This document shows positions 3,976 through 46,393 of a stretch of DNA of 64,000 nucleotides, one piece after another. The stretch spans positions 106,070-170,069 of the forward strand of contig JBBTSO010000005.1 of NCBI GenBank assembly GCA_038064695.1, given 5' to 3'. Numbering within the stretch: position 1 is the stretch's first letter; every line of letters starts with the position of its first letter. The translations under genes and the position numbers were made by a program. Source of the DNA: Patescibacteria group bacterium (GTDB taxonomy: Bacteria; Patescibacteriota; Minisyncoccia; Phycocordibacterales; Phycocordibacteraceae). The notes beneath the pieces are model-generated. The model was not told the DNA's origin. It worked only from the letters and a program-made list of their open reading frames with translations, and did not search any database.

Positions 3976-5136
3976 CTAGACCAAAACACCACCTCCCACG
4001 CACTCATCTGTTTCGGGATTATACAAAACGATACTCTGTCCCGGTGCCACTTGTACTGGTTTTTTAAAGCGAAGTTCCGTGCCGTGCACTGAAACAGGAA
4101 TACGTTCTCCGTGGTAACGAATCTGTGCTTCAAGCAAGGAGGACTGCACATCGCTTCTAATCCAATGCATTTCTTTTACATTGCCAACCGCGCTCAAACC
4201 ATATTCTTCAACATAGGGCGAAAGAATTAATTCATTTGCATCAATATTTTTTTTAACGACGTATAATTTCTCGCCAGATCCTAAAGGAAATCGCTCTCCG
4301 AGTGTGTAAAATTGAACGCCATCATGCGTTCCGATCACCTCACCTTCGGTATTTTTTAGGTGTCCTGGCACAACCGGAATGTAGTGCTGGAGAAATTCAC
4401 GCATATCAACATGGCCTAAAAAACAAAGCCCCTGCGAATCGCGCTTTGTTGCGTTTGGAAGCCCTGCCTCATTTGCAATGCGACGCACTTCTGTTTTTGG
4501 TAACTCCCCTACGGGAAACAACGTGTGCGAAAGGTCGTCTTGAGTTAGTGTCCATAAAAAATAACTTTGATCTTTAGCCTCATCCACTCCACGCAATAAT
4601 TTGTAATCTTTGTTCCTCGCATAAGCAGAGCTTGCGTCCAGCGTTCGCTCGGACGTAATGACACTTGCGTTACTACGTCCCTCACTCACTCGGGCGTAAG
4701 CGGAGCTTTCGCTCGGCGTTCGTTCGTACGTATCAGTGCGGACACTGTCACGTACTTCTCTCACTTGAGCGTAGTGTCCCGTGGCAATAAAATCAGCGCC
4801 TTCTTTTTTTGCCTGTTCCCAAAATGCGCCGAATTTTATTTCTCGGTTACACGCAACATCTGGGTTAGGCGTCCGTCCAGAACGATACTCTTCAATAAAA
4901 TAGTCTACGACGCTCTTTTTGTACTCTTCTTCAAAGTCATAAGAAAGAAATGGGATTTCCAAATGCGCCGCGACACGCATTGCGTCCAGTCGATCTTGCC
5001 CTGAGGTACAGGGTAAAAAGTCCGGCTCCCATACCTTTAAAAACACCCCCACGACGCGGTACCCCTGTTTCTTTAAGAGGTACGCTGAAACAGCAGAATC
5101 CACCCCACCGGAGAGGCCTACAAAAACAGTTTTCAT
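3976..5136 (-). CDS. mnmA: tRNA-specific 2-thiouridylase MnmA, carrying an approx. 45-aa in-frame repeat-derived insertion
   Basis: PP-loop VGLSGGVDSAV, ATGHYA, DQSYFL and CFLG motifs. The ORF is open to 5334, but homology starts at MKTVFVGLSGG (ATG 5134-5136). The inserted segment VREVRDSVRTDTYERTPSESSAYARVSEGRSNASVITSERTLDASSAYAR is absent from typical MnmA. Confidence 0.9.
   Translation of the reverse strand: MKTVFVGLSGGVDSAVSAYLLKKQGYRVVGVFLKVWEPDFLPCTSGQDRLDAMRVAAHLEIPFLSYDFEEEYKKSVVDYFIEEYRSGRTPNPDVACNREIKFGAFWEQAKKEGADFIATGHYAQVREVRDSVRTDTYERTPSESSAYARVSEGRSNASVITSERTLDASSAYARNKDYKLLRGVDEAKDQSYFLWTLTQDDLSHTLFPVGELPKTEVRRIANEAGLPNATKRDSQGLCFLGHVDMREFLQHYIPVVPGHLKNTEGEVIGTHDGVQFYTLGERFPLGSGEKLYVVKKNIDANELILSPYVEEYGLSAVGNVKEMHWIRSDVQSSLLEAQIRYHGERIPVSVHGTELRFKKPVQVAPGQSIVLYNPETDECVGGGVLV
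4620..4745. repeat. imperfect tandem approx. 40-nt repeat with CCGAGCGA core inside the mnmA coding region (in frame)
   Basis: Two related units were read directly (gcataagcagagctt...cgttcgctcggacg and gcgtaagcggagctt...tcgctcggcgttcg). They encode the duplicated SSAYAR peptide. The core matches the intergenic repeat at 11.5 kb and the uvrB insertion. Confidence 0.6.
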
Positions 5137-6536: not shown

Positions 6537-7790
6537 TTACAAGGGAATATTATCAGGTGGTTCTAAGCGCGTGCCGTGCACGCGCGAAAGAGCGCTGGAG
6601 CGCGTTATGTGTGGCAAGTGAAATAACGTAGCAAGTTCAGCAGTGTTCAGTACCGTTACTTTTCCATAGTAAGGCGGGGTGAAGTGCGTGCGGCGGCGAT
6701 AAAGGTTCAATACATATGCTTCATAAAGCCAGGGTATTGCGGCAAAGATATCTGAGAGTGGCCAAGAAATTCGTTCACGTGGATTATAGGCACTGAACCC
6801 ATTTAATTTTGGATCAGAGAATTGGTCAAAGAGCGTGTCCAGTCCCTCTGCGCGTGCCTCATCATACACATCACGGTCTGCCATATAAAGTGCCCTCACG
6901 CCACAGTCAAACGAGGGGCGTTTCAACGCGTCTTCAATTGCCGCAATAATTTCTTGTTCAGTTTTTGGAAGTTGTCGAGGGTCCCCAACGTCACCAATAA
7001 TTTTTCCAATTTCATGTGTGGCATCAGTGTGCAGACTATCAACTTCACGTTGCCAAAAATGTTTTCGCTCCCTCTGGTGGGGGCGAACGATGAAAGAGAT
7101 GTAGAGATGCTGTTTTTCAGGAAGTGAGATAAGTGAATCCAAGAGCGCGTGAAAGGGGCCACTCTGATCCTTTTCTTTCTCATACGATTCATACGTTTTT
7201 AACGGGTAAGGATCTGGTTTTAAAAGTGTAAACTCGCGCGCCGCAAGTTTCATTGAAACAGGGCTGAATGCTACCTCACGCGCGTAGTCGCGTGGCTCAT
7301 CAATATCAACGTCTTTATATTCGCTTCGCAAACGCAGCTCAAACGCCTGACGATGTGCCTTTGGGATGCGTACAAAAAAACGCACGGTACCGCCCGTTGC
7401 AGCAATCTCAAAGCTCCACGGAAGGCGCACTCTTCCGGCAAGTAATTCCTCTGTTCGTGAAATAGATTCACGGTAGTAGAGCGAGTAAAAAACTATCTCC
7501 ATAGGATGGGCAGTTTTGGGGGTGTGTTCACCAGGCTTTAACTCCAACATCACGTACGGAACTGAAGCAACGTATTGTGACCGCACATACGTAAGCCAGA
7601 GTGGAATAAACAGTGCAGTAAGGAGGAGCGGAAGCCACAAAGGCGCCAGCGCCCATAGAAAACCAAAAAAACCTGCGACGACGTTAGGAATGAAATACAC
7701 CCCGAGAGGAATAAGTAAAAGGAGTGAGAGCGCTAAAACGCGCAACAATACGCGAACATCCATGGATAAAATATACCATTTAAAAAACAC
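6537..7790 (-). CDS. hypothetical membrane-anchored protein (2 N-terminal TM helices plus approx. 330-aa soluble domain)
   Basis: 417 aa with no Walker or other recognised motifs. Translationally coupled after mltG (10-nt gap). Confidence 0.5.
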   Translation of the reverse strand: MFFKWYILSMDVRVLLRVLALSLLLLIPLGVYFIPNVVAGFFGFLWALAPLWLPLLLTALFIPLWLTYVRSQYVASVPYVMLELKPGEHTPKTAHPMEIVFYSLYYRESISRTEELLAGRVRLPWSFEIAATGGTVRFFVRIPKAHRQAFELRLRSEYKDVDIDEPRDYAREVAFSPVSMKLAAREFTLLKPDPYPLKTYESYEKEKDQSGPFHALLDSLISLPEKQHLYISFIVRPHQRERKHFWQREVDSLHTDATHEIGKIIGDVGDPRQLPKTEQEIIAAIEDALKRPSFDCGVRALYMADRDVYDEARAEGLDTLFDQFSDPKLNGFSAYNPRERISWPLSDIFAAIPWLYEAYVLNLYRRRTHFTPPYYGKVTVLNTAELATLFHLPHITRSSALSRVHGTRLEPPDNIPL

Positions 7791-8985: not shown

Positions 8986-11376
8986 TTATGGAATAAAATT
9001 AATGATTTTATTTTTAACATAAATGACTTTTTTTGGCTTAAAATCTACATATTTTGACAATTTCTGATCATTTTTTATGCGAATAAACACCTCCCCTTCT
9101 TCAAGGTCTCGGCTAATGCGGATAGACCCTTTAGTCTTACCTCCAACCTGAACAGCAATTTCTACCTTATCCGAAGTTGCCTTTGCAGGGTCAAAAATAG
9201 GCCACATTTCTTGATGAATAGAGAAATGGTTTCCGATCCTTTCCCAAAGCTCTTCTGTAACATGAGGAGCAAAAGGGGCAATAAGTATAAGGAGTGTGTC
9301 ATATTGTTTTTTGCCAATTGTTTTTTGTTTCTCAACTTCATTAACAAAAATCATTAGTGCTGAAACAGCGGTGTTGAATTTGAATTTTTCAATATCTTCA
9401 GAAACCTTTTGAACAGTTTGGTGAAGTATTGTTTCAAGCGCAGCAACGTCTTCACTGCGTACTGAATCACGCAAACGCAATACACGTTCTATAAAACGTC
9501 GCGAACCAACCAACCCGTTGGTAGACCACGGGACGGTGTTTTCAAACGGTCCCATAAACATTTCATACACGCGCATTGAATCAGCGCCAACTGAATGAAC
9601 AATATCGTCAGGATTGATTATATTCCCCCACCGTTTGCTCATTTTTCTCCCATCTTCCGCAAGAACAAATCCAAGAAATTCAAGACGAGTAAATGGCTCA
9701 AGCGTGCTTACCAAGTTGATGTCATATAAAAATTTATGCCAAAACCGCGCATAAATAAGATGTCGGACCGCATGATCTCCTCCCACATAGACGTCTACCG
9801 GCCCCCACTTTTTTTCAATGTTTTGGTTTACTAACTCAGACGCGTTATGCGGATCCATAAAACGAAGCCAGTACCAAGAAGAACCGGCCCATTGCGGCAT
9901 AGTATTTGTTTCTCGTTTTGCATCTCCACCACAGGACGGACACGGTACGTTCACCCAACTCTCAATTGCGGCAAGCGGTGACTCTCCTGTTCCCGTAGGT
10001 TCATAGTGATCAACGTCGGGTAATAAAACCGGCAAGTCTTTTTCTGGAACGGGAACGACGCCACACTTTTTACAGTGGATGACCGGAATCGGTTCTCCCC
10101 AATAGCGCTGTCGTGAAAATACCCAGTCCTGAATTTTGTATGATGTTTTACGTTTAGCAATACCCATTTTAACCATCCACTCAACCATCTCGGCAATCAG
10201 TGTAGGAGAGATGGTTTTTCCGGTAAACGGCCCTGAATCTTTAAGAGTTCCTTCGTTGAGGTGCGCGTTTACGAATGTTCCATCACCCACCACTGTTCTT
10301 AGTGGAATGTTATATTTTTCAGCAAATGCCACATCGCGTTCGTCATGACCAGAGCAACGAATTGCTCCGGTGCCAAAATTCATTAAGGCGAAGTTTGCCA
10401 CCCACACTGGCATACGCGCACCTTCTCGGTAAGGATCTTCAACATAGCACCCTGTAAACACCCCAAGTTTTTCTTTTCCCTCAGTTCGCTCAAGCATTGT
10501 TTTTGAAGCCATCAATGACACAAATTGCAGTACCTCCTGTTCTGTTTCAAGACCCTGCACTAGTTTCGGCACCAACGGATGCTCTGGAGCTAGTACAACG
10601 TACGTGTCAGCGTACATCCACGCCGGATATGCGCTAAATGTTTCAATGGCAAAATCCTGGTCAACAACAGGGTGAGAAACGATTATGCCTTCCTTTTTTC
10701 CAATCCAATTTCGTTGCGCTTCCTTAATGTGCTCTGGCCACTCGGTGAGGGAGTCCAGGTCTTGAAGCATGCGGTCAGCATACTCAGTAATTTTCAATAC
10801 CCACTGACGCATAGGTTTTTTTGTGACAGTGCTGTCGCAGCGCTCACACGTGCCGTCAGCATTCACATCTTCATTCGCAAGTCCTGTTTGGCAGGACGGG
10901 CACCAGTTTATCGGTTCAAACGATTGATGCGCGAGGCCTTTTTCAAAAAGTTTAAGAAAAATCCACTGCGTCCATTTATAAAACGCGGGGTCAGTCGTGT
11001 TAATTTCACGAGTCCAATCATAGTTAAAACCGAGCAGGGCGAGCTGATTCTTGAAGTTGGCAATGTTTTTCTCAACCGCGACGCGTGGGTGTACTTTATG
11101 TTTTATCGCAAAATTTTCTGCAGGCAACCCGAACGCATCCCACCCCATGGGATGCAATACCTCAAACCCATTCATTTTTTTATATCGGGAATATATGTCA
11201 GTCGCTATGTACCCTTTTGGATGCCCCACGTGGAGCCCTTCACCCGATGGGTACGGAAACATATCCAGAATGTACTGTTTAGGTTTGTCAGTTGAAGCAT
11301 TCGTCTTATAGAGCGACGCCTCCGCCCAGCGTTTCTGCCATTTTGATTCTATTGCTTTATGATCGTACGGCTCCAT
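8986..11376 (-). CDS. leuS: leucyl-tRNA synthetase (short bacterial form)
   Basis: HIGH-type PYPSGEGLHVGHPKGY, KMSKRWGN, and editing/CP1 region present. 796 aa. Confidence 0.95.
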   Translation of the reverse strand: MEPYDHKAIESKWQKRWAEASLYKTNASTDKPKQYILDMFPYPSGEGLHVGHPKGYIATDIYSRYKKMNGFEVLHPMGWDAFGLPAENFAIKHKVHPRVAVEKNIANFKNQLALLGFNYDWTREINTTDPAFYKWTQWIFLKLFEKGLAHQSFEPINWCPSCQTGLANEDVNADGTCERCDSTVTKKPMRQWVLKITEYADRMLQDLDSLTEWPEHIKEAQRNWIGKKEGIIVSHPVVDQDFAIETFSAYPAWMYADTYVVLAPEHPLVPKLVQGLETEQEVLQFVSLMASKTMLERTEGKEKLGVFTGCYVEDPYREGARMPVWVANFALMNFGTGAIRCSGHDERDVAFAEKYNIPLRTVVGDGTFVNAHLNEGTLKDSGPFTGKTISPTLIAEMVEWMVKMGIAKRKTSYKIQDWVFSRQRYWGEPIPVIHCKKCGVVPVPEKDLPVLLPDVDHYEPTGTGESPLAAIESWVNVPCPSCGGDAKRETNTMPQWAGSSWYWLRFMDPHNASELVNQNIEKKWGPVDVYVGGDHAVRHLIYARFWHKFLYDINLVSTLEPFTRLEFLGFVLAEDGRKMSKRWGNIINPDDIVHSVGADSMRVYEMFMGPFENTVPWSTNGLVGSRRFIERVLRLRDSVRSEDVAALETILHQTVQKVSEDIEKFKFNTAVSALMIFVNEVEKQKTIGKKQYDTLLILIAPFAPHVTEELWERIGNHFSIHQEMWPIFDPAKATSDKVEIAVQVGGKTKGSIRISRDLEEGEVFIRIKNDQKLSKYVDFKPKKVIYVKNKIINFIP

Positions 11377-11465
11377 AATTATTACTGAGTATACCGTATC
11401 TAGCGTTCAATAAAAAAACCATATCTCTGCTCCTTCAAAGCGAGGACAATGCACATTTTTGAGAC

Positions 11466-11600
11466 TTAGACCCGGGCTCGTTTCTCACTTAAGCGAGGCG
11501 ATACTTGTTTTGAGGAGAGTAAGACTTGGGCTAGCGCCCTGGAGCGCTCTCCGAAAAATGAGTATCACCGAGCGACTCTCTACTTTCAAACGAGTGAAGA
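11466..11600. repeat. intergenic palindrome-rich repeat element (family with copies inside uvrB and mnmA)
   Basis: gagacttagacccgggctcg...gagagtaagacttgggctagcgccctggagcgctctc...tatcaccgagcgactctc. Compare uvrB 39925-39995: agactaagacttgggcaagcgccccggagcggtctc...atacccgagcgacc. Confidence 0.65.
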
Positions 11601-11628: not shown

Positions 11629-11654
11629 GAGCGAGCGCTGAAAGCAAGCTTTGC

Positions 11655-12197
11655 TTATTCTTTGAATTTCTTAACCCCAATATACACAAGCACGATGAGT
11701 GCAAGTCCCACAATGCCTAGACGAATGTAATCACCCGCTGCTTCCCAATAACGAACTGAAGCGATGATGAACGAGAGAACACCTCCGTACGAAAGTCCTG
11801 CGGACACTGCGGGAGACATACGAAGCACAAACCCAAGTCCGATTGACAGCGCGCCGAGCACCACGAGCGCGACAAATACATTTTGTGAGTACGCTTTTCG
11901 CTCATCTTCATATTCCATCTGACAGGTAAAGAATTCGTTACAATAACCCTTCGGTTCAGAGAGGTCTACTGGTTTAACGTCAGTGTACGGCGGATTCCAC
12001 TGCCCCCCAACGGCAACACACGATTCTTCAGAATCCAAAACGGGGCGTACTTGCTGTTGTACACAGAAATCTTCAAACTTCGGTTCAGGCGTTACCGTCT
12101 GAATCGCTACCGCAAAAAATAAGTTGAGAATAATAATTATGCCAATTGAGAGTGCCCACTTCAGCACACCTTTGCCTTTAAATTGGGTTGCATCCAT
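11655..12197 (-). CDS. hypothetical membrane protein (N- and C-terminal TM helices, Cys-containing ectodomain)
   Basis: 180 aa with hydrophobic segments ALSIGIIIILNLFFAVAI and VFVALVVLGALSIGLGFVL...GLALIVLVYIG. No family recognised. Confidence 0.5.
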   Translation of the reverse strand: MDATQFKGKGVLKWALSIGIIIILNLFFAVAIQTVTPEPKFEDFCVQQQVRPVLDSEESCVAVGGQWNPPYTDVKPVDLSEPKGYCNEFFTCQMEYEDERKAYSQNVFVALVVLGALSIGLGFVLRMSPAVSAGLSYGGVLSFIIASVRYWEAAGDYIRLGIVGLALIVLVYIGVKKFKE

Positions 12198-38678: not shown

Positions 38679-38711
38679 GAAACCTATTTTATACTAGTTT
38701 TTTAAATATGT

Positions 38712-38770
38712 CAATCTTCCTGCAAATACCTCATTTTAGGCCTTATTTTGCGGGCTGGTTCGATAGGTAG
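38712..38770 (-). repeat. displaced duplicate of the uvrB 3-prime end (last 16 codons + stop), approx. 395 nt downstream of the intact copy
   Basis: RC translates ...PARKIRPKMRYLQED*, the same peptide as the uvrB C-terminus. 54/58 nt identical to 39111-39168, then abrupt divergence. Confidence 0.8.
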
Positions 38771-39076: not shown

Positions 39077-39110
39077 ACAACTTGCATAGTATCATTCAAA
39101 GTGAAATTTG

Positions 39111-41276
39111 TCAATCCTCCTGCAAATATCTCATTTTGGGCCTTATTTTACGGGCTGGTTTAACGGGTTTTGGTAACTTTTCTTCAAGTTTAATAATTTC
39201 GTCCCGCAAAAGTGCGGCGGTTTCAAAGTCCAGCACTTTCACCACTTCTTCCATTTCTGCCTTTTTATCTTTTATGAGCTGTTTTAGGGCCTTGGGGCTG
39301 TCCGCAATAGCCATATCAACCATCAACGCCATAGCGGTCGCTCTATCACGGTCGGCTTTGAGCGAATCAGTAATGTCGTGGATAGTTTTCTTAATAGTTG
39401 CAGGGGTAATGCCATGCTTTTTATTGTATGCCAACTGCACTTCGCGACGGCGGTTTGTTTCTGCAATTGCTTTTGTAAGAGACCCGGTCATTTCGTCTGC
39501 ATACAAAATCACTCGCCCATTTACATTTCGTGCTGCACGCCCAATGGTTTGAATGAGAGATGTTTCGCTTCGTAAAAATCCTTCTTTATCGGCGTCCAAA
39601 ATTCCCACCAACTCCACCTCGGGCAAGTCCAACCCTTCACGGAGCAAGTTCACTCCGACCAAGCAGTCAAATTTTCCACGCCTAAACTCGGTCAAAATAG
39701 TAATACGTTCTATTGTTTTTATATCTGAGTGAATGTATTCCGCTTTCACTCCCTTCTCTTTCAAAAACTCCGCCAAATCTTCCGCCATTTTCTTCGTGAG
39801 TGTGGTCGTGAGTACGCGCCCTCCGCCCGCCACCACTTTTTCAGTCTCTTCAATAAAATCCGCCACTTGCCCCTTATACTGTTCCTCAGTGTTTTCTGCC
39901 TTTTTAGCGAGGGTGTCCCTCGCAGAGACTAAGACTTGGGCAAGCGCCCCGGAGCGGTCTCTAAGAGGGATACCCGAGCGACCTGTGACGGGGCGAAGAA
40001 TAATTTCCGGATCAATGAGCCCTGTGGGGCGAATAATTTGCTCCACCACCTGTGTTGAATGTTCAAACTCATACGCGCTCGGTGTTGCGGACGTGTAAAT
40101 ACGCTGTCCGAGTCGCGCGTCTATTTCGTCAAATTTTAATGGGCGGTTGTCAGCGGCCGATGGTAGACGGAATCCGAAGTCTATCAATGTTTTTTTACGC
40201 GACTGATCCCCCGCATACATTCCTCCCAACTGCGGAATGGTTACGTGTGACTCGTCAATAATAGTGAGAAAGTCTGGCGTGCCATCTTTCTTATGAGGAA
40301 AATATGAAAGCAAAGTGTACGGTGGCTCGCCGGGTTTTCGGCGGTCAAAGTGGCGCGAGTAGTTTTCAATGCCGTTGGTGTAGCCAATTTCGCGAATAAG
40401 CGCCAAGTCATACTTGGTGCGGCGCTTCAAGCGCTCCGCCTCCAACAACTTCCCTTCTGCTTCAAATTTTTTAAGTTGCGATGCTAACTCCGCTTCAATA
40501 TCAACGAGTGCCACCTCTCGTTCTGACTCTGGTGTCACGTAGTGTTTTGCAGGGAAAAGGAAAAAAGTATAAGGTTCGTCAATAATTGACCGCGTTACTC
40601 CGTTGATGCGCGAAATTCTATCAATTTTTGTACCGTCCGGCACAACGCGATAAATAGTGGTTTCATTCACCGGCATCACTTCTATTTGGTTCCCTACCGC
40701 ACGAAAGGTGCCGGGAGTTAAATCAGCGTTCGTGCGCTCAAACTGCAACGCAATCAAAAAGCGCATAAATTCTGCACGTTCAAATGCGTCTCCGACAGAA
40801 ATTTTCCGATGCACCTTTTCATACTCGTCTGGTGAACCAAGTCCGTAAATACACGACACTGACGCCACGATAATGACGTCGGAGCGCGTCAACAGCGCTT
40901 GCGTTGAGGCGTGGCGCAAACGATCAATTTCTGCGTTAATCTGCGCTTCCTTCTCTATATAGGTGTCCGAGTGCGGCACGTACGCTTCCGGTTGGTAGTA
41001 GTCGTAATAAGAGACGAAGTAGTGAACGGCATTTTCAGGGAAAAACTCCCGATACTCTTGGGTTAACTGTGCTGCGAGTGTCTTGTTGTGGGCAATAACG
41101 AGAGTTGGTTTTTGCACCTGTTGAATCACATTTGCTGCCGTAAAGGTCTTTCCAGACCCCGTCACGCCCAGAAGGGTTTGGTGTGTATCACCACGTTTAA
41201 TACCCTTTACCAACGCCTCTATCGCCTTTGGTTGATCCCCTGCGGGTTCATACTCTGAATGGAGTTTAAAATTCAC
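39111..41276 (-). CDS. uvrB: excinuclease ABC subunit B, carrying an approx. 37-aa in-frame repeat-element insertion
   Basis: Walker A GVTGSGKTFT, DESH, helicase motifs, beta-hairpin, C-terminal UvrB/UvrC interaction domain. The insertion VTGRSGIPLRDRSGALAQVLVSARDTLAKKAENTEEQY sits between the conserved ...ILRPV and KGQV...RVLTTTLTKKMAEDL. Confidence 0.95.
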   Translation of the reverse strand: MNFKLHSEYEPAGDQPKAIEALVKGIKRGDTHQTLLGVTGSGKTFTAANVIQQVQKPTLVIAHNKTLAAQLTQEYREFFPENAVHYFVSYYDYYQPEAYVPHSDTYIEKEAQINAEIDRLRHASTQALLTRSDVIIVASVSCIYGLGSPDEYEKVHRKISVGDAFERAEFMRFLIALQFERTNADLTPGTFRAVGNQIEVMPVNETTIYRVVPDGTKIDRISRINGVTRSIIDEPYTFFLFPAKHYVTPESEREVALVDIEAELASQLKKFEAEGKLLEAERLKRRTKYDLALIREIGYTNGIENYSRHFDRRKPGEPPYTLLSYFPHKKDGTPDFLTIIDESHVTIPQLGGMYAGDQSRKKTLIDFGFRLPSAADNRPLKFDEIDARLGQRIYTSATPSAYEFEHSTQVVEQIIRPTGLIDPEIILRPVTGRSGIPLRDRSGALAQVLVSARDTLAKKAENTEEQYKGQVADFIEETEKVVAGGGRVLTTTLTKKMAEDLAEFLKEKGVKAEYIHSDIKTIERITILTEFRRGKFDCLVGVNLLREGLDLPEVELVGILDADKEGFLRSETSLIQTIGRAARNVNGRVILYADEMTGSLTKAIAETNRRREVQLAYNKKHGITPATIKKTIHDITDSLKADRDRATAMALMVDMAIADSPKALKQLIKDKKAEMEEVVKVLDFETAALLRDEIIKLEEKLPKPVKPARKIRPKMRYLQED
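39925..39995. repeat. palindrome-rich repeat element inserted in frame in uvrB
   Basis: agactaagacttgggcaagcgccccggagcggtctctaagagggatacccgagcgacctgtgacgggg. Same family as 11466-11600. Confidence 0.7.
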
Positions 41277-43533: not shown

Positions 43534-43550
43534 GTATTTCTTCTAAAAAA

Positions 43551-43606
43551 CAAAAGTCCTTACGGAAGGGCTTGAAGCGTACATCTCCCTGGAGTAAGGA
43601 CTTTTG
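43551..43606. repeat. hairpin repeat element with conserved loop (copy A), doubles as bidirectional terminator
   Basis: CAAAAGTCCTTAC-ggaagggcttgaagcgtacatctccctggag-GTAAGGACTTTTG. 13-bp perfect arms with T-runs on both sides. Compare 46340-46393. Confidence 0.7.
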
Positions 43607-43619
43607 TTTTTATTATTAA

Positions 43620-46339: not shown

Positions 46340-46393
46340 AAAAGACTTTTCGAAAGGGCTTGTAGCGTACATCCCGCTTGCGAAAAGCCTTTG
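46340..46393. repeat. hairpin repeat element with conserved loop (copy B), downstream of nrdB
   Basis: AAAAGACTTTTCG-aaagggcttgtagcgtacatcccgcttg-CGAAAAGCCTTTG. The loop shares GAAGGGCTTG-AGCGTACATC with copy A. Confidence 0.7.

Follow-up and report, generated by a model that had tools for sequence, protein, structure and literature searches.

What has added 37 residues to the UvrB protein of a groundwater bacterium of the Patescibacteria group without breaking its reading frame? The gene lies in a stretch of 64,000 nucleotides (nt) of contig JBBTSO010000005.1 (assembly GCA_038064695.1, positions 106,070 to 170,069 of the forward strand), which we call the window and whose own numbering is used throughout. 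Here, uvrB occupies 39111–41276 on the minus strand as an intact open reading frame (ORF) of 721 amino acids, recognized from the ORF list and from NCBIfam and Pfam: two NCBIfam UvrB equivalogs match with 942 and 934 bits, each match being broken in two at the insert, and the set of Pfam domains (ResIII, UvrB_inter, Helicase_C, UvrB, and UVR) is complete. The 37 extra codons (39876–39986, minus strand) encode TGRSGIPLRDRSGALAQVLVSARDTLAKKAENTEEQY and have IILRPV and KGQV on either side, the local translation reading ...DPEIILRPV-TGRSGIPLRDRSGALAQVLVSARDTLAKKAENTEEQY-KGQVADFIEETEKVVAGGGRVLTTTLTKKMAEDL, with KGQVADF as the downstream flank. We consider it reasonably probable that this segment is a single member of a dispersed, non-coding family of hairpin repeats, which inserted, spread, and was kept in the manner set out below. 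The repeat itself is a near-invariant 27-nt apical core between two complementary arms that vary from copy to copy; it is found at nonhomologous loci across genomes and is polymorphic at uvrB among close relatives.

A preliminary description of this stretch, made from its letters, had placed 37 extra residues at this point in a preserved frame, and both statements stand, the residues being absent from the UvrB of B. caldotenax and from two close homologues, P0002 and P0004 (P-numbers denote UvrB homologues, L-numbers DNA loci, and WIN the window version). Its interval of 39925–39995 takes in the core and one arm of the element and falls short of the full insert. A phmmer comparison with the B. 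caldotenax protein (2fdc_A) pairs query residues 3–433 with chain residues 5–430 and query residues 468–698 with chain residues 428–655, and this break into two stretches places the extra segment between T427 and K428 of 2fdc_A. Alignment of filled with empty alleles (P0002/L005, TGSENYKGQ) gives a net insertion (RSGIPL...KKAEN) of ≈30 to 31 codons at ≈39891–39980 on the minus strand, with boundaries good to a few bases only. Two assemblies made independently of each other encode an identical UvrB protein, one being GCA_964357335.1 (contig CAYHKB010000001.1) and the other an ENA contig from Hainich groundwater, which excludes an assembly artifact. The 37-residue peptide matched no NCBIfam or Pfam family at E ≤10, bar one chance match (0.14).

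An AlphaFold2 model of UvrB built from 57 aligned sequences has a mean predicted local distance difference test score (pLDDT) of 75.9. Residues 434–465 fall below 50, flanked by a confident strand (residues 424–428, IILRP) and a confident helix (residues 470–483), and since this low-confidence tract lies between two confident elements, the insert is best read as a flexible surface loop. The site is what we take to be the first strand-to-helix connection of helicase domain 3, right after the link from domain 1. The structure mapping proposed in the preliminary description came out in its favor, as on this model the insert lies in the opening loop of helicase domain 3.

Anatomy of the hairpin

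The extra uvrB DNA corresponds to a hairpin of ≈77 nt (39905–39981), within which a cmsearch with covariance model R1 places the element at 39910–39976 (73.5 bits, E = 3e-18), on the plus strand, the one antisense to uvrB. The 27-nt apical core, TAAGACTTGGGCAAGCGCCCCGGAGCG (39930–39956, plus strand), comprises a 4-bp helix (GGGC/GCCC), an AAGC loop, and flanking internal-loop strands. On either side of it, the 5′ arm GGGTGTCCCTCGCAGAGAC (39911–39929) and the 3′ arm GTCTCTAAGAGGGATACCC (39957–39975), both given for the plus strand, pair with each other in the predicted fold. The basal flanks, TAGCGA (39905–39910) and GAGCGA (39976–39981) on the same strand, are partners that, as read from sequence, would contribute two G-A oppositions followed by two Watson-Crick pairs.

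A second copy lies at 11500–11566 on the plus strand (cmsearch, 70.3 bits), in the spacer between the start of leuS (11376) and the next gene (which ends at 11655). Its core is TAAGACTTGGGCTAGCGCCCTGGAGCG (11520–11546, plus strand), and the two copies share TAAGACTT-GGGC-(A/T)AGC-GCCC-(C/T)GGAGCG. That the insert DNA is a copy of the intergenic repeat near 11.5 kb had been proposed in the preliminary description, and the shuffle test, blastn, and the covariance model agree on it: the two sites share 32 nt with three mismatches where 0 are expected (100 shuffles), blastn aligns 37 nt at 89% identity (E = 2e-6) with flanks that can be aligned further, and R1 finds exactly two copies in the window, the next match (≤17 bits) being a generic hairpin without the core. 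On the plus strand, both copies are predicted to fold into two basal Watson-Crick pairs, a 2×2 G-A loop, 11 to 12 pairs, a 2×2 loop, seven pairs, and the 27-nt core. The outer arms of the two copies are unrelated in sequence, yet paired in each, and the inner stem carries a compensatory change, GAGAC/GTCTC in the uvrB copy versus GAGAG/CTCTC in the copy at 11.5 kb. For the uvrB copy, the predicted fold has −45.9 kcal/mol (z = −4.7) on the plus strand versus −39.0 kcal/mol (z = −2.3) on the opposite, mRNA strand; the corresponding values at 11.5 kb are −41.6 (z = −4.8) and −35.4 kcal/mol (z = −3.4).

The two short palindromes that had been pointed out in the insert are both present in the DNA. 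AGAGAC/GTCTCT forms part of the long predicted hairpin, whereas GCGAGGG and CCCTCGC both fall on its 5′ side, in the basal flank and the 5′ arm, and could form only a local alternative hairpin. CGAGCGA is not enriched as a genome-wide motif (nine matches versus 7.1 expected).

A dispersed family

An exact-pattern scan with CGCTCCNGGSSGCTNGSCCAAGTC over public genomes, one genome per species, returned at least 119 stretches in which the core is identical or nearly so; family-wide counts here and below (131, 130, or 128 copies; 125 loci) rest on the copies among the matches listed. Within Patescibacteria, these derive from Saccharibacteria, Paceibacterota and Parcubacteria, Kaiserbacteria, Adlerbacteria, Jorgensenbacteria, Nomurabacteria, Minisyncoccia, Peregrinibacteria, and Peribacteria, and the matches listed also include six Bifidobacterium species (hapali, ramosum, santillanense, miconis, aerophilum, and amazonense). 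Each copy among them forms a long hairpin whose arms are its own, with a base-to-base length of 57 to 117 nt (median, 83 nt). The covariance model was built from a 41-copy seed in which all 20 arm pairs are changed on both sides and the apical pair 31–38 covaries (C-G versus G-C, 30:11); the seed was picked for good pairing, and its 96% paired figure is not independent evidence. Within 8-kb loci, the model adds ≈14 copies, most with altered cores, which suggests approximately one copy per 30 to 55 kb. The complete Patescibacteria chromosome OY970216.1 (804,691 bp) carries five or more copies.

The ends of the element carry little in common. The AGCGA...GAGCGA flanks seen in uvrB recur at the 11.5-kb copy and in uvrB orthologues, but are clade-specific, being found family-wide in only 12 of 128 copies. 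A direct repeat of at least 2 nt at the flanks is lacking in 98 of the 128 and is limited to 2 nt in a further 25, the junctions being inferred from arm alignment such that short target-site duplications could escape; the sole flank signal is a weak one, an A at −1 in 69 and a G at +1 in 55 of these 128 copies. No protein family recurs near the element, as clustering of the 2132 ORFs within 2 kb (125 loci) yielded none found in more than six loci.

The Bifidobacterium copies (L018, L019, L029, L042, L065, L091, and L094) occupy nonhomologous loci and have in common an arm subfamily specific to Bifidobacterium, which is what descent from one master copy would produce; this suggests cross-phylum transfer followed by local spread. 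Three of these loci (L029, L042, and L065) hold a second copy 120 to 140 nt away, the L065 pair lying between apparently convergent ORFs. A plasmid or phage carrier was considered and dropped, as blastn of two copies against PLSDB and INPHARED gave one marginal actinomycete match (E = 0.5) and no phage. Separately, the core pattern has one exact match among 2.9 million viral contigs, at 2973–2996 of L126 (IMG/VR UViG_3300037781_000105).

Rfam scans of the window and 12 loci at gathering thresholds returned tRNAs only, and scans of two copies at E ≤10 returned only generic microRNA-type hairpins that skip the core. A fit of the core to K-turn, UAA/GAN, or sarcin-ricin-like motifs, made by hand, had the wrong register, and nothing is claimed from it. 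Full-text literature searching found no description of the element, which is weak evidence of novelty given that most subscription papers lie outside such a search.

The copy-specific paired arms recall spacers, and TIGR-Tas systems are reported in parasitic bacteria and phages (PMC12045711). A known guide-RNA or repeat-array system of the TIGR-Tas or CRISPR-like kind, or else an ordinary intrinsic terminator, would nonetheless be an almost wholly improbable source of the repeat: unlike such arrays, the copies are single and dispersed, with no tandem arrays and no recurring neighbor gene, some lie inside ORFs, and neither window copy shows the T-tract signature of a terminator.

Strand specificity of the fold

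Each 5′ arm was aligned to the reverse complement of its own 3′ arm under strand-neutral scoring. Transition mismatches in the arms are wobble-compatible on the UAAGACUU...GGAGCG strand in 134 cases versus 24 on the other strand (p = 1e-19), and in 116 of 130 copies this (reverse) strand gives the more stable fold. For both window copies, the well-folding strand is the plus strand and hence, in uvrB, antisense to the gene, which indicates that the conserved fold is not a feature of the uvrB mRNA; it belongs to either a single-stranded DNA form or an antisense RNA. Across the family, for which gene calls are crude, the well-folding strand lies antisense relative to its host gene 36 times versus 18, and in codirectional spacers it is antisense to both neighbors in 18 cases versus 12. 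Its complement, the forward strand, is the G-rich strand in 90 of 131 loci.

These biases bear on a second explanation, in which the repeat is a host-functional structured nucleic acid, that is, an antisense or independent small RNA or a single-stranded DNA signal, with a protein-bound core and with each copy under purifying selection. We regard it as rather unlikely. The strand bias of the wobble pairs and the orientation bias toward the G-rich strand would both fit such a molecule. The excess of antisense placements cuts the other way for an RNA, as most copies would then need their own antisense promoter, and neither a promoter-like nor a terminator-like site was found on the plus strand beside the uvrB copy; at 11.5 kb, the scan gave one plus-strand promoter-like match (11335–11363), which lies ≈140 nt upstream of the copy, inside the 5′ end of leuS.

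Copies inside coding sequences

Thirty-three of the 131 copies lie in frames that stay open for at least 60 codons to both sides, and every frame and orientation but one is represented. Read forward, the core encodes RSGPLGQVL in phase 0 (12 copies), ALRAARPSLT in phase 1 (eight copies), and APGRSAKSY in phase 2 (one copy); read in reverse, it encodes VRLGLAARSA in phase 1 (five copies) and KTWPSGPERP in phase 2 (seven copies), and reverse phase 0, which contains TAA, has none. One DNA core conserved under five translations points to a constraint on the nucleic acid and not on the peptide. A lineage-specific, adaptive peptide insertion in UvrB, with the likeness to the 11.5-kb spacer incidental or derived from uvrB, is for this reason extremely unlikely, even with the ERSGPLGQVL core recurring in several UvrB orthologues: the same DNA core stands in unrelated genes in four other combinations of frame and orientation and in intergenic DNA, arm-encoded residues are unconserved while the arms stay complementary, the AlphaFold2 model has low confidence for the insert, and close relatives do without the segment.

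Hosts recognized by eye from sequence include IleRS, two ValRS, CysRS, IF2, LigA, two TGT, QueA, a cysteine desulfurase, YchF, TsaD, RarA, and MiaA. The apparent host at L097 looks spurious. The view that this repeat family colonizes essential coding sequences is borne out by such hosts as IleRS, ValRS, CysRS, IF2, LigA, and TGT, and the count of in-frame copies, here taken over public genomes, shows that many sit in recognizable essential genes. Outside genes, copies have 2.5 open frames of six versus 2.15 in an arm-shuffled control, such that selection after random insertion suffices to account for the in-frame copies; coding preadaptation of the element was rejected on the small size of this excess. 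In two cases, the element occupies the same protein position in opposite orientations, namely TGT (L023 versus L037) and an O-antigen-ligase-like membrane protein (L055 versus L085). Either these sites are merely permissive, or the core may flip between its own inverted arms, which would leave length and frame unchanged.

The presence of a highly structured module in essential genes might also suggest an intervening sequence, either intron-like RNA or an intein-like peptide, that is removed to leave mature UvrB without the segment, and Patescibacteria are known for insertions in their rRNA genes. This is very unlikely here. The uvrB insert is in frame and without a stop codon in the window and in all orthologues examined (L001–L004 and L006), occurrence in both orientations within ORFs is incompatible with a splicing signal, the better-folding strand is antisense to uvrB, and neither an Rfam intron nor an intein-like family (for the 37-residue peptide) was matched.

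The insertion site in UvrB orthologues

In an alignment of 120 UvrB homologues, the insert falls in a linker of variable length, 20 to 26 residues in most of them. The window protein groups with Patescibacteria homologues from Kaiserbacteria- and UBA2163-like relatives. WIN, P0001 (95% identity), P0003, P0005, P0006, P0008, P0009, and P0029 (74%) carry an insert whose core peptide reads (E)RSG(P/A)L(G/A)QV, and the site is empty in P0002 (92% identity; TGSENY) and P0004 (89%; TGNESY), in most other Patescibacteria UvrBs, and in solved UvrBs. The orthologue alignment called for in the preliminary description thus finds the insert in some relatives and not in the close P0002 and P0004 or in solved UvrBs, and the same 37 residues did not turn up in lineages without the repeat family. 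In a neighbor-joining tree, P0002 and P0004 nest within the insert-bearing clade, which implies either a single ancient insertion that was cleanly lost at least twice or insertions that recurred at one and the same codon.

At the DNA level, orthologous loci (L001–L004 and L006) keep the core, which reads CGCTCCGGGCCGCTAGGCCAAGTCTTA on the coding strand, and the flanks (G)CTCG...CTCGC, while the arms are unalignable across genomes and complementary inside each genome. Window uvrB is 72 to 83% identical to the orthologue DNA, at which level free sites are near saturation, and the kept core and pairing therefore point to constraint or homogenization.

Several other features of this site were recorded. 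In P0005 (L001, ≈11350–11420) and P0003 (L002, ≈7230–7300), the 3′ half of the element is partly duplicated in tandem, the duplicated unit being a second CAAG(A/T)CTTACGCTC..., and their UvrB loop is lengthened to ≈50 to 53 residues. The WIN version, with its GGGGCGCTTGCCC apical helix and GAGAC inner stem, is closer to that of the more distant P0005 than to that of its nearest relative P0001; sliding-window identity showed no rise near the insert of the kind that a local recombination tract around the element would give. An origin of the arms as an inverted duplication of the target was rejected, as the empty uvrB site (L005) has no similarity to the arms. Unrelated insertions of 20 to 35 residues occur at exactly the same linker in P0012, P0045, P0053, P0062, P0100, P0105, P0108, P0117, and P0119. 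The linker position is a general hotspot or a permissive site for length change.

Spread and maintenance of the element

In the account we favor for the hairpin repeat, the element would have inserted into the loop with which UvrB helicase domain 3 opens, probably in an ancestor of the clade that contains WIN, P0001, P0003, P0005, and P0006, and P0002 and P0004 would have lost it later. As part of uvrB, the element would be transcribed and its codons translated into a flexible loop on the protein surface, and it may persist there because its length keeps the frame, it contains no in-frame stop, and the site tolerates length variation. The family would spread, or be maintained, via a single-stranded form of one strand, reading UAAGACUUGGCCUAGCGGCCCGGAGCG, whose arms have to pair and whose core is probably what a trans-acting protein recognizes. 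Since the paired strand is antisense to uvrB mRNA, the structure probably works for the element itself or for some process at the DNA level, and not for UvrB expression.

Several observations weigh against this account. Core and pairing are retained in uvrB orthologues that are only 72 to 83% identical in DNA, which resembles purifying selection on resident copies and is unexpected for a decaying selfish insert. The copies have no target-site duplications (none in 98 of 128), and their ends share no conserved repeats. A mobilizing gene, such as one for a transposase or a reverse transcriptase, was not found within 2 kb (no Y1-aimed or whole-genome search was made), and no two copies at different loci are near-identical over their full length, such that no recent transposition event is seen. 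Conservation of the core across the family is partly a matter of ascertainment, because the search pattern demanded a near-intact core, and the translation of the uvrB insert is presumed from its reading frame.

A host-functional nucleic acid would accommodate some of these points, as the core is kept and the arms are compensatory among uvrB orthologues down to 72% DNA identity, one core spans deeply diverged Patescibacteria lineages, and copies within a genome are all diverged, with no recent bursts seen. It is less easily squared with the lack of any Rfam family and the unrelated genomic contexts, with the polymorphism of the uvrB site among close relatives, and with the opposite orientations at the same protein site in TGT and the O-antigen-ligase-like protein. 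We also judge unlikely a strand-specific, protein-recognized single-stranded module, either single-stranded DNA or antisense RNA, that is held by purifying selection at each site, essential genes included, shared across Patescibacteria, and passed to Bifidobacterium. If true, the hairpin would be a dispersed functional signal in nucleic acid of a kind not described before, with a role, for example, in replication or repair priming or in recombination, and the 27-nt core would be among the most conserved non-coding sequences of the phylum.

Relation to known systems

The hairpin is apparently an undescribed repeat, and its nearest described analogues are the Rickettsia palindromic elements (RPE), which measure ≈100 to 150 bp and carry a conserved peptide per family (Ogata et al. 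2000, 2002, summarized in PMC10969869). Both are short, dispersed palindromic repeats in the reduced genome of a host-dependent bacterium, often in frame in unrelated housekeeping genes, with the host protein intact and the insert at a fold-compatible site. The differences are also clear. The host phylum is another, and no similarity was detected in NCBIfam or Pfam, where the presence of RPE models was left unchecked and no Rickettsia DNA was compared. The element described here is shorter (median, 83 nt) and uses five of six frames and both orientations with no fixed frame; only its 27-nt apical core is conserved, its arms covary, and its fold is strand-specific. Finally, it spans many class-level Patescibacteria lineages and reaches Bifidobacterium. 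The earlier label “RPE-like” is thus supported as an analogy of behavior, and does not extend to RPE membership, a peptide match, or a fixed frame.

[quoted passage not shown] The hairpin resembles MITEs in being small, non-autonomous, multicopy, hairpin-forming, and occasionally part of a translational fusion, and differs in its variable arms, in the 98 of 128 copies without a flanking direct repeat, and in having no partner gene within 2 kb. REP/REPIN-RAYT and IS200/IS605-derived hairpins are repeats that are processed in single-stranded DNA form; with them, the element shares the lack of terminal inverted repeats and target duplications, and strand and orientation biases. REP elements conserve the stem sequence inside each genome and come with a 5′ GTAG-type motif and a RAYT gene; here, in contrast, conservation lies in the loop core, and the stems vary freely. 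The strand-specific hairpin is as in the REP and IS200/IS605 systems with respect to folding specificity, which is what is seen here, and not to DNA being the active form. Unlike in those systems, the well-folding strand is mostly the C-rich strand and not the one expected for the lagging-strand template. Integron attC sites have conserved basal R and L boxes and a variable apical part and form cassette arrays beside an integrase. The hairpin is like attC in being recognized, as we propose, by structure with one folded strand active and in its variable paired arms, and unlike attC in that the conserved part is apical, not basal, and that the copies are dispersed in housekeeping genes, not in arrays.

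Other repeats in the window

A variable loop of mnmA (4603–4761, minus strand) holds ≈46 to 50 extra residues by homologue alignment, the distance from IATGHYA to KDQSYFLW being 79 residues versus 29 to 33 in most of 120 MnmA homologues. The preliminary description had assigned this insert to the same repeat family as that of uvrB, and this assignment fails. The DNA is rich in palindromes and its segment 4621–4650 matches 11629–11658 (30 nt, 87%), a different palindromic repeat; the 27-nt core is absent, and R1 finds no match. The encoded peptide has a tandem SERTxxxSSAYA-type unit, with a related peptide in MnmA homologues P0126 and P0179, and this recurrence, together with the lack of a core or R1 match, argues for a second in-frame repeat family. 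Judged by sequence similarity, the spacer at 11.4 to 11.66 kb holds members of both families.

Two further repeats were noted. A 57-nt direct repeat (91%; 38704–38760 and 39104–39160) duplicates the uvrB stop codon and 3′ end in the uvrB-uvrA spacer, which is unusually long at ≈670 nt. Another hairpin repeat pair (43546–43611 and 46340–46392; 53 nt, 77%), with 25-nt arms that are 88% complementary and without the 27-nt core, is found in spacers downstream of tgt and near 46.4 kb and may represent a terminator-like repeat family.

Implications

The element provides a concrete cause for some of the odd insertions in Patescibacteria housekeeping proteins, which matters for annotation, phylogenomic alignments, and structure prediction. 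If a second, unrelated family behaves in this way in bacteria of a different group, likewise reduced and host-dependent, the phenomenon would be shown to be a general one. With an invariant apical core, free paired arms, one active strand, and no terminal repeats or target duplications, the usual MITE model does not fit, and this architecture points to a structure-specific mobilizing or binding factor. Finally, the presence of the element in a few primate-associated Bifidobacterium species is a marker of DNA exchange between Patescibacteria and Actinomycetota.

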